Part shown: in pieces, positions 10,503 to 49,706 of the stretch
How the letters are laid out: each line of letters starts with the position of its first letter
Numbering within the stretch: the first letter of the stretch is position 1
Sequence record: EU863409
DNA from: Escherichia phage JS10
DNA: 64,000 nt
Strand: one strand, 5' to 3'
The notes under the pieces: generated by a model
The model's database searches: none
What the model saw: only the letters and a program-made list of their open reading frames with translations
What the model was told of the DNA's origin: nothing
Made by a program: the position numbers and the translations under genes

Positions 10503-10510
10503 TATAAATA
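10503..10510 (+). promoter_or_regulatory. late promoter box TATAAATA (gene 53)
   Basis: Exact octamer 28 bp upstream of gp53 ATG. Confidence 0.6.
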
Positions 10511-41283: not shown

Positions 41284-42567
41284 ATGGCAAAGATTAACGA
41301 ATTACTGCGCGAGTCAACAACTACTACCAGCAACTCATTGGGTCGCCCTAATCTTGTTGCTTTGACCCGTGCTACCACTAAACTAATTTATCGCGATATC
41401 ATCGCTGAACAACGTACTAGTCAGCCTATTGCTGCATTGTATGGTGTCAAATATCTTACCCCTGATAATGAATTCAGTTTCCAAACTGGTGCTGTTTATG
41501 GTGGTGAAGTTGGTTCTAAAGACCGTGAAACTATCCCGGAACTCACAGATAAAGCCCAGGCGATTGCCAAGGGTGACTACTTTAAGTATCAGAATGTGGT
41601 TTATAAGGCTCTTCAAGCAAGCCCACTCGCATCCACTAGCGCTACAGGATTGGCCGATGCTCTTCAAGAAGGTTTGGTGTCATTAACATGTCGTCTGGTT
41701 CCTGATGCAGCCCATACCACTAAATTCGAAGCGAGTAATGTAGAAATCTCTGATGCTGTATTCCAGGTTAATAAATGGAATGCTCCTGTTAAGACCCGTA
41801 AATTGAAGACTGCTTTGACTGTAGAATTGGCACAGGATATGGAATCAAATGGCTTCGACGCCCCTGCATTCTTAGAAGACCTCCTGGCTACAGTAATGGC
41901 AGATGAAATTAATAAAGACGTTCTGCAATCTCTGATAACCGTATCTAAACGCTATAAAGTTACCGGTGTATCTGATAATGGCATCATCGATTTGACTTAT
42001 GATAGTGCTCCGGAATCTGCCCGTAAACTTTATGAAATTGTCTGTGAGATGAATTCTGAAATCCAGAAAACTACTTCTTATTCTGGTACGTTTGTTGTGG
42101 CTTCAAGTCGTGTGGCTGCAATGCTTGCAGGTTCTGGCTGGTTAAAACATAGACCTGAAGATAATAATTGGCTCCCGGAAACTGCCTATGGTTATTTGTT
42201 GAATGGATTACCACTGTTCTGTGACGTTAACAGCCCATTGGATTATGTTATCGTAGGTGTTAAAGAGAACTATGGTGGTAATGAAGTTGTCGGTTCTATT
42301 TTCTATGCCCCATATACAGAAGGCCTGGATTTAGACGACCCAGAACACGTTGGTGCTTATAAGGTTATTGTCGACCCGGATTCATTACAGCCTTCTATTT
42401 CTCTGATGGTTCGTTATGCACTTTCGGCTAACCCATACACCGTAGCTAAAGACGACAAAGAAGCTCGTATTATCGACGCAACCAATATGGATTTAATGGC
42501 GGGCCAGAGTAATATGTCTTATCTGCTTGGTGTTAAACTTCCAGCAATTATTTACGAGGCTGATTAA
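41284..42567 (+). CDS. 24: gp24 capsid vertex protein, copy A
   Basis: 427 aa (T4 about 427), gp23-like fold protein downstream of 23. Confidence 0.9.
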   Translation: MAKINELLRESTTTTSNSLGRPNLVALTRATTKLIYRDIIAEQRTSQPIAALYGVKYLTPDNEFSFQTGAVYGGEVGSKDRETIPELTDKAQAIAKGDYFKYQNVVYKALQASPLASTSATGLADALQEGLVSLTCRLVPDAAHTTKFEASNVEISDAVFQVNKWNAPVKTRKLKTALTVELAQDMESNGFDAPAFLEDLLATVMADEINKDVLQSLITVSKRYKVTGVSDNGIIDLTYDSAPESARKLYEIVCEMNSEIQKTTSYSGTFVVASSRVAAMLAGSGWLKHRPEDNNWLPETAYGYLLNGLPLFCDVNSPLDYVIVGVKENYGGNEVVGSIFYAPYTEGLDLDDPEHVGAYKVIVDPDSLQPSISLMVRYALSANPYTVAKDDKEARIIDATNMDLMAGQSNMSYLLGVKLPAIIYEAD

Positions 42568-43850
42568 TGTCTAAGATTATAGACCTAATTAAAGAATCCA
42601 CATTGACGGCTGCCAACTCGGTTGGCCGTCCTGCTCTTCTTTCATACACCCAAGCAACTAATAAACGAATCTTTAAAGCCCTAGTTGCTGAACAAAAAAC
42701 AAGCCAACCTGTTGCCGCTCTGTACGGGGTTCGTGTACTTAATCCTGACGACAAAATGACTTATCTTGGTGGCGCTACATTTGCAGGCCAGATTGGTATG
42801 TCGGAACGTGAAAATATTCCTGAATTTACCGATTCGTCTACAGCTTATGCAGCCGGCGATATGTTCCAGTTTGAAAGTGTAGTGTTTAAAGTTCTAGAAG
42901 CATCTCCTTTCGCCGGAACCACAGAAACCGACCTCGGTGAAGTTATTTCTGAAGCAGTGGCCGCTGGGCATATTCGTATGGTATCAGATGCTGCTATTAC
43001 TTCTAAATTTGAACAAGGCCACCCTGAAATTGCTGAAGCAGGCTTCCGTATTGACAAATGGCAATCTGAAGTTAAATCACGTAAACTGAAAACTTCATTG
43101 ACAGTCGAATTGGCCCAAGACCTAGAATCAAACGGGTTTAATGCTCCTAATTTCGTTGAAAATCTGCTAGGCATTCAAATGGCAGAAGAAATTAATAAGG
43201 ACGTATTACAGTCATTAATTACGGTGAGTTCTCGTTTTAAAGTCCAAGGTGTTTCTGAAAAGGGCGTATTAGACCTTACCAACCCACGTTACGATAATGC
43301 CCAGGACCGTGCTCGTACATTATATTATTACATGTGTGAGATGAACTCTGCCGTCCAACGTCAAACTTCTTTCGCCGGGACTTATGCAGTAGCTAGTTCT
43401 CGTTGTGCTGCTATTCTCGCCGCTTCCGGTTGGGTTGAGAAAAAGGAAGACCAAGACGAATTGGCTTATGGTGTATTAAAGAATGGTCTGCCTCTTTATG
43501 CCGATATGAATAGTCCATGTGATTATGTTATTGTTGGTGTAAATGCTCAGATGGGTGAAGGACAGACGGTCGCATCTTTATATTATGCGCCTTATACGGA
43601 AGGTTTGGATGTGGTTGATGAAGAAGGTGATACTTCAGTAGGTGAATTTAAGGTTATTGTTGACCCAGAAAGCTTACAACCTACAGTAGCATTGCTTGCT
43701 CGTTATGCATTGACTGCAAACCCTTATACCGTCGCTAAGGACGATAAAGAAGCCCGCATTATTGATGGCTCTGATATGGACAAAATGGCTAACCAAAGCC
43801 AGTTGAGTTCTTATCTTGGTGTAAAACTTCCTCCATTGGATAAAAACTAA
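42567..43850 (+). CDS. gp24 capsid vertex protein, copy B (diverged tandem paralog)
   Basis: 427 aa, roughly half identical to copy A by eye (shared LKTxLTVELAQD, EINKDVLQSLITVS, PYTVAKDDKEARIID). Confidence 0.9.
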   Translation: MSKIIDLIKESTLTAANSVGRPALLSYTQATNKRIFKALVAEQKTSQPVAALYGVRVLNPDDKMTYLGGATFAGQIGMSERENIPEFTDSSTAYAAGDMFQFESVVFKVLEASPFAGTTETDLGEVISEAVAAGHIRMVSDAAITSKFEQGHPEIAEAGFRIDKWQSEVKSRKLKTSLTVELAQDLESNGFNAPNFVENLLGIQMAEEINKDVLQSLITVSSRFKVQGVSEKGVLDLTNPRYDNAQDRARTLYYYMCEMNSAVQRQTSFAGTYAVASSRCAAILAASGWVEKKEDQDELAYGVLKNGLPLYADMNSPCDYVIVGVNAQMGEGQTVASLYYAPYTEGLDVVDEEGDTSVGEFKVIVDPESLQPTVALLARYALTANPYTVAKDDKEARIIDGSDMDKMANQSQLSSYLGVKLPPLDKN

Positions 43851-44886: not shown

Positions 44887-45255
44887 TTATTTGCTTCCAT
44901 AATCAATTTTAACTAATTTACCTTTAAGGTAACCATAATTTGAAGGTTTACAATCAGACATATACATGCTTTCTACCAGAGTGTGGTGCCTAGCATGGTG
45001 TATTTCTGTTTTCCACAACCCTATATTAGTAACTTCTTTGGCCCTTGGCATAACTATAACAAGTCCTAACCAAGATTTCCATATAACAGGACACAAATAC
45101 GGGTCCTTCAATGATGAGAATTCATGTTCTGTTATATTGCAATAGAGTCCAGTTAAAAACAGTTTCCAACTATAGAAGCTTGGTATCTTAATGGCGTATC
45201 GTTTCGTCAGGAAGACCTGCCGGGTTGCACCATTTCTTTTTCTGATAAATGGCAT
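44887..45255 (-). CDS. hypothetical protein with protein-kinase-like motifs
   Basis: 122 aa; GATRQVF...YAIK, then DCKPSN and IDYG at kinase-like spacing; too short for a full kinase; tentative. Confidence 0.45.
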
Positions 45256-45370
45256 AAAACCACCATAATAAATATAATTAAATAGAAGAGCTAGTAATCT
45301 TCTGTCACCAAGCCAAATGGTTTAACGGAAGGACCTAGACCCATTATAACACACCTAAATTTAAAGCATA

Positions 45371-45580: not shown

Positions 45581-45650
45581 AACAATTCTCTTGTTGAGTT
45601 GGTAAAGCCATCTTAACATAGGATTTTTAACTTGTAAACAGGAGTATTAA

Positions 45651-46658
45651 ATGGCAGATTCTATTTTTGGTCATGACGGTCGAGGGACCTTTTCCGGTAT
45701 TGCTTTAAAGGAATCGGATACTGTTATCCCTTTTGAAAAAATTCTTACTAAAGAAAGTCTTATAAACCCGGCAAGATTGGTAGGGAGTAATTCGTATGGC
45801 TTAGGCTTGGTTAGTAAATCCGGAAGAGCTGAAGTTCTGGCCCATTTGGGGATAACCGAAGAAATGTTATCCCCTGGTATCCCTGGCCCTAAAGGTGAAA
45901 GCATTGTAGGACCGAGAGGCCCGGCTGGTCCTGTAGGCCCTGTGGGTCTAAATTGGAAAGGAACATGGAGTGCTGCAACAGCCTATGTTAAGGATGATGC
46001 AGTAGGGTACAATGGGGCTTCTTATTTTTGCGTTCAGGATTCTACCGGTAATAATCCTGCTGAAGAAAACAGCCTTTACTGGGCCTTATTGGCTTCTCAG
46101 GGTGCACAAGGCGAACAGGGTATCCCGGGTAAAGATGGTGAGCAGGGTCCGCAAGGTGTTCAAGGTCCTCCTGGGGTGGATGGGATTGATGGACTTGACG
46201 GAGCTACTGGCCCTCTAGGTCCTCAGGGTCCTCAAGGCGAACCTGGTAAAGATGGCACAGATTTGTTTTCATTCCATAAGTATACCAACGTTGCTGCTGG
46301 GTACGGTGAAATAAAAATACCTGGGGTCGCCAATACGGTTCTTAGAGTTAGATTGGTTAACAACCAAATAGAATACAGCATTTTAAGTAAAGGTGGGACT
46401 ACCCGATATTGTGATTATCACTTTGTTGCTCCTAGTGTTTCGGGTGGAACGGTTACTACCGGTGGCGGAACTAAGACTTTGTCTCCTACAGGCTCATTTG
46501 TTATAGTAAGTGCGGCATATAACGGGCTACGTCCTATTAATATAACCTTAAAGGAATGGGGTTCTAAAACAATTTCAGAAATAACAGTATTTCAACACGG
46601 GCGCAGTGTAGATTCTAATAAACCTATATTGGTTAAAATGGTTAGTTTCCCTTATTAA
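45651..46658 (+). CDS. collagen-like repeat protein with CBM5/12-like domain
   Basis: Two G-X-Y blocks flanking WSAATAYVKDDAVGYNGASYFCV...LYWALLA (chitin-binding type 3-like motif); C-terminal globular region. Confidence 0.75.
   Translation: MADSIFGHDGRGTFSGIALKESDTVIPFEKILTKESLINPARLVGSNSYGLGLVSKSGRAEVLAHLGITEEMLSPGIPGPKGESIVGPRGPAGPVGPVGLNWKGTWSAATAYVKDDAVGYNGASYFCVQDSTGNNPAEENSLYWALLASQGAQGEQGIPGKDGEQGPQGVQGPPGVDGIDGLDGATGPLGPQGPQGEPGKDGTDLFSFHKYTNVAAGYGEIKIPGVANTVLRVRLVNNQIEYSILSKGGTTRYCDYHFVAPSVSGGTVTTGGGTKTLSPTGSFVIVSAAYNGLRPINITLKEWGSKTISEITVFQHGRSVDSNKPILVKMVSFPY
46101..46256 (+). repeat. collagen G-X-Y triplet coding repeat
   Basis: About 17 consecutive GXY triplets. Confidence 0.8.
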
Positions 46659-46669
46659 TTGGAGGTAGC

Positions 46670-47530
46670 ATGTCTATACAAGTAAATGGACCTCATTATG
46701 AATTGGTTGGGAGAACGGTAACTCTTAGGGCTGTTTTATCTGAATCTTTAACTGACGCTGATATAAAATGGTACAAAAACGGTGTAAACGTTCCATTATT
46801 AGATAAAGAAGACCCGATGTATCTAAATCTTTGGGATGTAGGGTTTCCGGCTTCTGGGACCTATTATGCAATAGCAACCGATAAACTTACACAAGAGGTT
46901 TTTCAAAGCGACGATTTTGTTTTAGAAATAGGAATGGAGCCTAGAGATATAGTTATTTCCGTAGAAAATTTAGATGCTATCGTAAAGGCGGCCATAGGTC
47001 AAAAAGTTTCTTTACAACCTTTAATTTCTATGGGTGCCACGCCCTGGGCTGAAGTCGAGTGTGAATGGTGGAAATACGATAAAATGGTTTCAAATGTAAA
47101 GGATTTGGACGTTGATATAAATCCTTCTATGTACGGGACATATTCACTTAATGTTTCTGCTACCGCTGAAGGAGCCTATAATCCGTATCATGATATAGTT
47201 ACGGTAGATATCATGCCTTTAGATGGTATTTTACCAGAACCTGAAGTGTGTCCTTTTATATACTCGAATGATTTAAATCAATATTTGTCTTATCCTGGTG
47301 GAAGAAATAGGGCTCATATGTGGATAGGTTGGTGGGTATTGGATGAGATAAAAGGAGCCCTTGCTAAAGACCAGGATTGGGCTATCAATATAGAAGATAG
47401 CAATTTTAGGTATAAGTGTGAGCTCATGAAAGTGGCAGAACTTTTGTCACGATATCCTGATGTAGAAATACAGGAATCAAGAAATGGATACATTTTGAAT
47501 AGGAAGCACCTGACATTAAATGTCATATAA
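46670..47530 (+). CDS. Hoc-like Ig-domain protein (short paralog)
   Basis: Ig-like region (WYKNG...SGTYYAIATD) plus C-terminal about 70 aa similar to Hoc C-terminus (WIGWWVLDEI...YPDVEIQESRNGYIL). Confidence 0.7.
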   Translation: MSIQVNGPHYELVGRTVTLRAVLSESLTDADIKWYKNGVNVPLLDKEDPMYLNLWDVGFPASGTYYAIATDKLTQEVFQSDDFVLEIGMEPRDIVISVENLDAIVKAAIGQKVSLQPLISMGATPWAEVECEWWKYDKMVSNVKDLDVDINPSMYGTYSLNVSATAEGAYNPYHDIVTVDIMPLDGILPEPEVCPFIYSNDLNQYLSYPGGRNRAHMWIGWWVLDEIKGALAKDQDWAINIEDSNFRYKCELMKVAELLSRYPDVEIQESRNGYILNRKHLTLNVI

Positions 47531-47535
47531 CAAAA

Positions 47536-47562
47536 CGGGAGAGCGAAAGCTCTCCCGTTTTT
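47536..47562. terminator. bidirectional rho-independent terminator between convergent hoc-like genes
   Basis: CGGGAGAGC-gaaa-GCTCTCCCG, 9-bp stem, flanked by AAAA upstream and TTTTT downstream. Confidence 0.8.
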
Positions 47563-49684: not shown

Positions 49685-49692
49685 TATAAATA
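49685..49692 (+). promoter_or_regulatory. late promoter box TATAAATA (uvsW)
   Basis: Exact octamer 28 bp upstream of uvsW ATG. Confidence 0.6.
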
Positions 49693-49698
49693 TAATTA

Positions 49699-49706
49699 TA
49701 TTTATA
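49699..49706 (-). promoter_or_regulatory. late promoter box TATAAATA (inh-like gene)
   Basis: Exact octamer on minus strand about 34 bp upstream of start at 49665. Confidence 0.55.

Follow-up and report, generated by a model that had tools for sequence, protein, structure and literature searches.

A conserved gene pair for a collagen-like fibre and a Hoc paralogue in Escherichia phage JS10 and other T4-like phages, a possible modular head fibre

Results

In a stretch of 64,000 nucleotides (nt) from Escherichia phage JS10 (record EU863409; "the window" below), the open-reading frame (ORF) at 45651-46658 on the plus strand encodes a collagen-like protein of 335 amino acids (aa), here called the fibre protein, and is followed on the same strand by a gene for a paralogue of the head outer capsid protein Hoc, here called Hoc-2. 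The two genes form a conserved two-gene module in T4-like phages, which is a new result; the literature searched yielded no description of this combination, in which a dedicated Hoc paralogue would carry a second protein that is collagen-like. We propose, with a rough probability of 0.5, that the fibre gene encodes the shaft and tip of a modular capsid fibre that docks on Hoc-2 and acts as an accessory adhesin. The proposal draws on the domain anatomy of the protein, the coupling between the type of its N-terminal domain and the type of Hoc-2, the independent exchange of distal domains, and the late promoters found upstream of orthologous pairs, each of which was observed directly.

The fibre gene is coupled to a Hoc paralogue

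Hoc-2 starts 11 nt downstream of the fibre gene. An earlier note on this DNA, made by a model from the letters alone, had pointed to a co-oriented Hoc-like gene 11 bp downstream, and the match of its product to phrog_1149 (E 3.7e-44) confirms that reading. Together with a blastp match to the C-terminal domain of the main Hoc (E 3e-18), this places Hoc-2 in the Hoc family, and the protein is 100% identical to the 'hoc head outer capsid protein' of JS10. Its AlphaFold2 (AF2) model, with a mean predicted local distance difference test score (pLDDT) of 83.8, contains two beta-sandwich domains and an alpha/beta C-terminus. In the minimal forms of Hoc-2, from phage Cronus (166 aa) and contig L022 (195 aa), only domain 1 and the capsid-binding domain are kept.

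In all ten intact phage examples first examined, a gene with a Hoc C-terminal domain (blastp E 1e-13 to 1e-43) follows the fibre gene at -8 to +11 nt, and an eleventh example, PspYZU05, is a decayed remnant of the pair. These examples comprised the JS10 window and members of Dhakavirus, Gaprivervirus, Gelderlandvirus, Roskildevirus, Biquartavirus and Ishigurovirus. The 75-aa N-terminal domain of the fibre protein (the N-domain) is coupled to its cognate Hoc paralogue in at least seven genera of T4-like phages and in metagenomes. A region specific to the N-terminus of Hoc-2 was present in 23 of 50,697 phage records, compared with 1046 records that have any Hoc, and 18 of these 23 also have the N-domain by tblastn; of the other five, which include TH15, the four that were inspected (two records of IME08, Phynn and ABTNLsp5) have an N-domain gene. 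The reverse look-up, starting from a metagenomic Hoc-2 homologue, led to a gene with Collagen and carbohydrate-binding module (CBM) domains 9 nt upstream.

The pair was also followed through rearranged genomes. In Aeromonas phage 65, it has been relocated to a position near tk and pseT, away from gene 24 and rnlB, while one metagenomic phage has the reversed order, Hoc-2 and then the fibre gene, with a 9-nt gap. The protein that adjoins Hoc-2 in Pantoea phage Phynn has the N-domain fused directly to a distal domain, without collagen, and among the Dhakaviruses the pair is present or absent as a unit.

Two types of fibre N-terminus were distinguished. The long type A always occurs with a type A Hoc-2 domain 1, and the short type B of phage VR26 and Kosakonia phage 305, with the pattern M..TGE[KR]EGV[FY]YGY.., is paired with a different Hoc N region; overall, the type of the N-terminus matches the type of the Hoc N region in 14 of 14 pairs. 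The three C-terminal types of the fibre (I, II and III) assort independently of N-terminus and Hoc type, and JS10 alone joins a type A N-domain to a type I distal domain, its Hoc-2 remaining type A. The same pattern appears in pairwise similarity, where that of the N-domain is correlated with that of Hoc-2 domain 1 at a Spearman coefficient of 0.66, compared with 0.34 for the fibre C-terminus and 0.30 for the Hoc C-terminus. A partner that tracks the N-terminus fits an anchor rather than a C-terminal chaperone or a tip adhesin of the gp38 type, and a chaperone or adhesin role for the downstream gene, as in T4 gp37/gp38, was rejected on the grounds that the partner does not follow the C-terminal type.

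The paired Hoc-like gene may be the sole Hoc in some phages, for example Kosakonia phage 305 and the phage of metagenomic contig P0018. For the former, the annotation of the fetched stretch ahead of inh (L024) contains no second Hoc-like gene, and the latter has only a 95-aa gene at the main hoc position.

Domain anatomy of the fibre protein

The fibre gene was already known and annotated in databases under a computational name. Its product is 100% identical to the BFVD entry C4MZS1, 'Tail fiber-like protein [Escherichia phage JS10]', and a copy in Esco_phi_B-01 shares 99.7% identity. The family phrog_5073, 'tail fiber protein', matches the protein with an E value of 1.1e-69 over its collagen, CBM and C-terminal parts, and many collagen-containing tail-fibre PHROGs match it more weakly. 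The parts of the protein are given in Table 1, and the structural statements below refer to an AF2 model of the monomer built from 64 sequences.

The N-domain, whose pattern is M.D..FGHDGRG.F.G..L...IPF..ILT.ES...YGLG.L....AL..LGITEEML.P, matched no family in Pfam or PHROG. By tblastn it occurs in 21 of the 50,697 phage records, all of them Straboviridae, and an exhaustive search of 1.84 billion representatives gave about 18 genuine clusters; it was found only in T4-like phages and in T4-like metagenomic contigs. A scan of viral contigs returned three matches only, which correspond to PspYZU05, CGG4-1 and Cronus. Long proteins with 4-10 matched stretches in the exhaustive search were rejected as repeat-amplified chance matches to one helix; P0131 and P0136 among them are TPR-like repeat proteins with GRAEVL..LGRLEEAL, and P0152 is a tandem-repeat protein of another kind. 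The N-terminal sequence of the fibre protein shows no evident signal peptide.

Some copies of the N-domain are detached from the rest of the fibre. The 'tail fiber-like protein' of IME08 (L001 1558-2966) is annotated without an N-domain, which lies just upstream in another frame (MVDETLFGHDGRGNFSGKSL...) and ends in a stop, owing to a frameshift or a sequencing error; rnlB stands between this frame-shifted N-domain gene and Hoc-2. Decayed remnants of the module that keep the N-domain only were seen in AP1 (a 78-aa ORF, L010 4001-4237) and in PspYZU05 (a 49-aa ORF, L009 4001-4150), the latter followed by a truncated Hoc-like gene of 132 aa.

The first collagen run reads GIP GPK GES, followed by a two-residue break (IV, residues 85-86) and GPR GPA GPV GPV GLN, and its Gly columns are invariant or nearly so in alignments of relatives. 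The earlier note had counted runs of about 8 and about 17 G-X-Y triplets; the first count holds, with the one break, and the second run has 18. The Collagen domain, for which it had proposed a profile search, was found far above chance: Pfam Collagen (PF01391) gives 41.4 bits (E 1.2e-10), its gathering score being 27.2, and this places the protein in that family. The pLDDT is below 50 in the collagen repeats, low as expected for a single chain. The collagen-like proteins encoded by E. coli O157 prophages are trimeric (PMC3368898), and the fibre protein is probably trimeric as well.

Between the two runs lies the module that had been read from the letters as CBM5/12-like, a reading that is upheld for the fold and not for the profile score. 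Residues 100-150 are modelled with a pLDDT above 90 as a small CBM5/12 beta fold, the closest solved relative by sequence is the chitin-binding domain of Bacillus circulans ChiA1 (1ed7, E 0.017), and many homologues have a precomputed PF02839 match. Against the Pfam CBM_5_12 profile (PF02839), whose gathering score is 26.2, the fibre module itself reaches 23.2 bits (E 7e-5), and of the 44 profile positions the match spans 1-28. In chitin-binding members of the family, chitin is bound by exposed aromatics, namely the WW of ChiC-type domains and the pivotal W687 of ChiA1. Such aromatics were not found in the fibre module: AQWWTKG of chitinase 60 aligns opposite YFCVQDSTG, so that the ChiC-type Trp pair is lacking, and the W687 region of ChiA1 falls beyond the aligned stretch, the loop that holds W687 being deleted in a manual alignment. 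The comparison thus points to a member of the CBM5/12 fold that appears to lack the canonical binding site, and, given the sub-threshold Pfam score and the missing Trp pair, glycan binding is unproven. The module shares the small fold and the core motif W....Y..(G/D).V.YNG..Y.C.Q with known CBM5/12 domains (ChiA1, 1ED7; Streptomyces griseus ChiC, 2D49), but it is part of a collagen stalk and not of an enzyme, and it may be a structural node only.

The C-terminal region, described from the letters as beta-rich, has 10 strands in the AF2 model at a pLDDT of about 75-94, which agrees with that description, and no Pfam family was found for it. A C1q/BclA-type head (gC1q/TNF jelly roll) was ruled out by the fold, and Foldseek resemblances to lectins and to CBM29 were weak (probabilities 0.1-0.4) and were disregarded. 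Residues 1-160 of the fibre protein resemble proteins of the T4-like phages Cronus, dhabil and CLB_P2, and residues 206-335 resemble the C-terminus of a VR25/VR26 protein (56% identity), which marks the protein as a mosaic. The same C-terminus is found in collagen-repeat proteins of unrelated E. coli phages, including the Vequintavirinae A5-4 and A7_1, the Rogunavirus members e4/1c, AugustePiccard and RobRod40, and the podovirus PAS7; it is also present in Kosakonia phage 305, the sole non-E. coli phage among the phage records. In e4/1c, the distal-domain gene lies in the head module, directly upstream of the major head protein gene. A distribution over several phage families within one host group is what is usually seen for a binding tip exchanged horizontally.

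Late promoters upstream of orthologous pairs

Exact copies of the T4 late promoter TATAAATA stand upstream of three orthologous pairs, at -42 in ABTNLsp5, -43 in contig P0029 and -75 in Phynn, and near-consensus forms were found at -41 in Kosakonia phage 305 (CATAAATA) and at -30 in VR26 (AATAAATA). From the density of TATAAATA in the window (19 sites in 64 kb, two strands), about 0.2 exact copies would be expected in the 14 upstream regions of 85 nt, and three were seen. Late timing of the orthologous pairs fits a virion protein.

For JS10 itself, the earlier note had reported no promoter consensus upstream of the gene, and this proved correct: no exact TATAAATA was found on the plus strand from 43800 to the fibre ATG, and sigma-70-like matches are not commoner than in shuffled sequence. 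The AATAAATA at 45267 lies 384 nt upstream of the fibre gene and is overlapped by one of the sigma-70-like matches (45249-45278), and a CCATAATAAATATAATTA block about 384-417 nt upstream is also present in dhabil, ABTNLsp5 and contig P0010. Immediately ahead of the ribosome-binding site stands a conserved TGTAAACA; it was weighed as a variant of the late promoter and ruled out, because a transcript from there would start after the Shine-Dalgarno sequence.

Discussion

Proposed head fibre

From sequence, synteny and structure models, we infer trimerisation of the fibre protein, its docking on Hoc-2, its location on the capsid and its binding of a ligand. In the proposed fibre, three chains would trimerise through two collagen triple helices, which at a rise of 0.286 nm per residue would measure about 7 nm and about 15 nm. 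Three CBM5/12-fold modules would form a knot between the helices, and a beta-sandwich tip would cap the fibre. The N-domain, of 75 aa, would dock on the outward-facing immunoglobulin (Ig)-like domain 1 of the co-transcribed Hoc-2, which in turn would attach to the capsid through its C-terminal domain, the part by which T4 Hoc is bound there. The fibre would project from the head and could provide reversible accessory adhesion to the E. coli surface or habitat, which would raise encounter rates before the tail fibres engage. The earlier note had suggested a trimeric fibrous decoration or adhesin; its domain reading stands, and the idea is strengthened by the coupling of N-domain and Hoc-2 in at least seven genera and by the late promoters of the orthologues.

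Several points weigh against such a head fibre. As the public annotation says tail fibre (PHROG 5073, C4MZS1), placement on the capsid can be put forward only conditionally, and a trimeric fibre on a monomeric Hoc poses a stoichiometry problem for which we have no solution. The N-domain is modelled with moderate confidence (pLDDT 48-83, short helices), the JS10 stretch has no canonical late promoter near the fibre gene, and in A5-4 a large gene annotated as a tail fibre lies two genes upstream of the one for the distal-domain protein. The counts of co-occurring records overstate independence, because these records share ancestry. The literature searched yielded neither experiments on the fibre protein or any orthologue nor data on them from proteomics, microscopy or binding assays; the A5-4 homologue falls outside the W70 virion proteome paper.

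We nevertheless regard a head fibre anchored by Hoc-2 as more likely than the annotated tail fibre. An accessory tail, baseplate or neck fibre would bind a tail or collar component through its N-domain, with Hoc-2 only passively linked to it, both being late genes that are dispensable and move together within a variable region. The phrog_5073 match and the weaker matches to collagen-containing tail-fibre PHROGs speak for this, as do the tail fibre annotation in JS10, Cronus, CGG4-1 and Aeromonas phage 65, the closeness of the distal-domain gene to a tail fibre gene in A5-4, and the collagen-like proteins of E. coli O157 prophages, which belong to the side tail and are trimeric (PMC3368898). 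Experimental support for the 'tail fiber' labels, which are computational annotation, was however not found, and the N-domain, with no match in Pfam or PHROG, showed no relation to a known tail attachment domain. In these T4-like phages the fibre gene is never part of a tail-fibre or baseplate cluster and is found instead among the head genes 24, hoc and inh, between gene 24/rnlB and hoc/inh. Passive linkage also leaves unexplained why the genes stay adjacent after relocation and order reversal and why the types of the N-domain and of Hoc-2 domain 1 vary together, and we consider a tail fibre unlikely.

Capsid binding could also be direct, through the N-domain, as in SPP1 gp12 at quasi-sixfold sites or in a vertex trimer like PRD1 P5, with Hoc-2 as a separate decoration made at the same time. 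Collagen-like trimeric capsid binders are known (PMC7602432), the fibre gene directly follows gene 24, which encodes the vertex protein, in Cronus and FBB1, and phages with the fibre/Hoc-2 pair have two gp24 paralogues. Direct binding would need no cognate Hoc type, yet the types match in all 14 pairs, and in Kosakonia phage 305 the annotation of the fetched hoc/inh region shows no Hoc-like gene besides the paired one; this arrangement therefore seems distinctly improbable. The chances are smaller again that the protein is absent from virions, whether as a collagen-like protein produced in the course of infection and then secreted or cell-associated, or as the product of a decaying passenger gene. 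Such a protein would be compatible with the lack of a canonical promoter beside the gene in the JS10 stretch, with the remnant copies in PspYZU05 and AP1, and with the many Dhakaviruses that are missing the gene, but not easily with an intact ORF and a strong ribosome-binding site, 99.7% conservation where the surrounding DNA is 96% identical, conservation of all four domains, late promoters at the orthologues and no evident signal peptide.

Extending the proposed head fibre to the whole set of pairs, we suggest tentatively, and at somewhat less than even odds, a plug-in system on the head of T4-like phages in which a dedicated Hoc paralogue serves as the capsid socket and the rare 75-aa domain as the plug for exchangeable fibres, collagen-like or not, with at least three kinds of distal domain. 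Such a system would give the phage an evolvable capsid adhesin independent of its tail fibres.

Comparison with known systems

Hoc is a common display platform that has been invoked in models of phage adherence to mucus, and it is treated as a stand-alone fibre. Hoc-2 is like T4 Hoc in its Ig-like domains, in the C-terminal W.GWWV.DEI...QESRNGYI and in the hoc/inh/uvsW neighbourhood. The difference lies in the partner, a fibre protein without a Hoc domain, whereas Hoc is described as a stand-alone monomeric fibre. The SPP1 protein gp12, a peptide of 6.6 kDa, attaches straight to the capsid and contains a single short collagen stretch. Like the fibre protein it has G-X-Y repeats; it is a collagen-like trimer listed as a decoration of the capsid at quasi-sixfold (q6F) sites, and a part in host adhesion has been suggested for it (PMC7602432). 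The JS10 fibre protein, in contrast, has four domains, 335 aa and a probable protein adaptor, and there is no sequence relationship between the two beyond G-X-Y.

Head fibres are also known from phi29 (PMC7602432), and those of phi29 (gp8.5), phiCbK and Agrobacterium phage 7-7-1 are capsid-anchored and flexible and make the first host contact (PMC12796354, PMC9266447), features that the JS10 fibre would share under our proposal. Ig-type domains of a capsid linker protein have been proposed as the anchor of the 7-7-1 capsid fibres (PMC12796354). The proteins are nonetheless unrelated, as the phi29 fibre is an alpha-helical coiled coil, the fibre protein of 7-7-1 is unidentified, and none is collagen-like or linked to a Hoc. 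The EPclA/B proteins of E. coli O157:H7 are likewise phage-encoded and form genuine collagen triple helices in E. coli with a C-terminal trimerisation domain, but they are assigned to side tail fibres, with different N- and C-terminal domains and a coiled coil, and they have neither a CBM-like module nor a Hoc partner.

Should certain Hoc paralogues prove to be sockets for another, exchangeable fibre, therapeutic T4-like coliphages, a group that includes JS10 and CLB_P2, would have in the head a second place at which host or habitat is recognised. The retention of two hoc genes by many T4-like phages would then have an explanation, nature would provide a two-part scaffold for display, and a recurring 'tail fiber' annotation would be corrected. 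The fibre/Hoc-2 hypothesis can be tested with existing phage isolates.

Feature coordinates and genomic context

Table 1 Features of the fibre/Hoc-2 region in the JS10 window
Feature	Position	Strand	Basis or remark
Candidate late promoter AATAAATA	45267..45274	+	One mismatch from TATAAATA; only candidate for the fibre/Hoc-2 pair; weak evidence
Shine-Dalgarno AGGAG	45640..45644	+	Sequence; 6 nt spacing to the fibre-gene ATG
Collagen-like fibre gene, 335 aa, JS10 'tail fiber-like protein'	45651..46658	+	ORF, Pfam, PHROG
N-terminal domain, residues 1-75	45651..45875	+	Candidate domain for docking on the virion or on Hoc-2
Collagen run 1, residues 76-99	45876..45947	+	8 G-X-Y triplets; sequence
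CBM5/12-fold module, residues 100-150	45948..46100	+	Inserted between both collagen runs
Collagen run 2, residues 151-204	46101..46262	+	18 uninterrupted G-X-Y triplets; best stretch of Pfam Collagen 150-202
C-terminal 131-aa beta-sandwich, residues 205-335, type I distal domain	46263..46655	+	Proposed target-binding or trimerising tip
Hoc-2, 286-aa Hoc paralogue	46670..47530	+	Ig-like beta-sandwiches 1-90 and 95-185, Hoc C-terminal capsid-binding domain
Bidirectional terminator-like hairpin	47537..47556		Closes the fibre/Hoc-2 unit against the convergent main hoc gene

JS10 is a Dhakavirus, and its gene order in this region is 24a, 24b, rnlB, a DUF2774 gene, the fibre gene, Hoc-2, hoc, inh and uvsW. 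The tandem paralogues of gp24, the capsid vertex protein, lie at 41284-42567 and 42567-43850 on the plus strand and share 57% identity; IME08, VR26, Cronus, dhabil, CGG4-1 and CLB_P2, each with the fibre/Hoc-2 pair, are annotated with this duplication too. The GC content is 0.46-0.51 over the collagen-coding part (45651-46400), compared with 0.33-0.40 in the flanks, as expected from Gly and Pro codons, and is by itself no evidence for a foreign origin. The hairpin downstream of Hoc-2 is single and GC-rich, with T-runs flanking it on both strands.

Directly before the start codon (45620-45650), a TTTTAACTTGTAAACAGGAG motif is conserved in JS10, dhabil and CLB_P2, and a related TGTATGTAAACAAGGAG is present in Erwinia phage Cronus despite a different upstream gene; the motif may act in translation initiation or regulation and move along with the cassette. 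Elsewhere in the window, exact TATAAATA copies form back-to-back divergent pairs, near-palindromes, at 10503/10525, 49685/49706 and 53324/53327. Of the copies at 49685/49706, the minus-strand one at 49706 serves inh/hoc, and its partner on the opposite strand serves uvsW.

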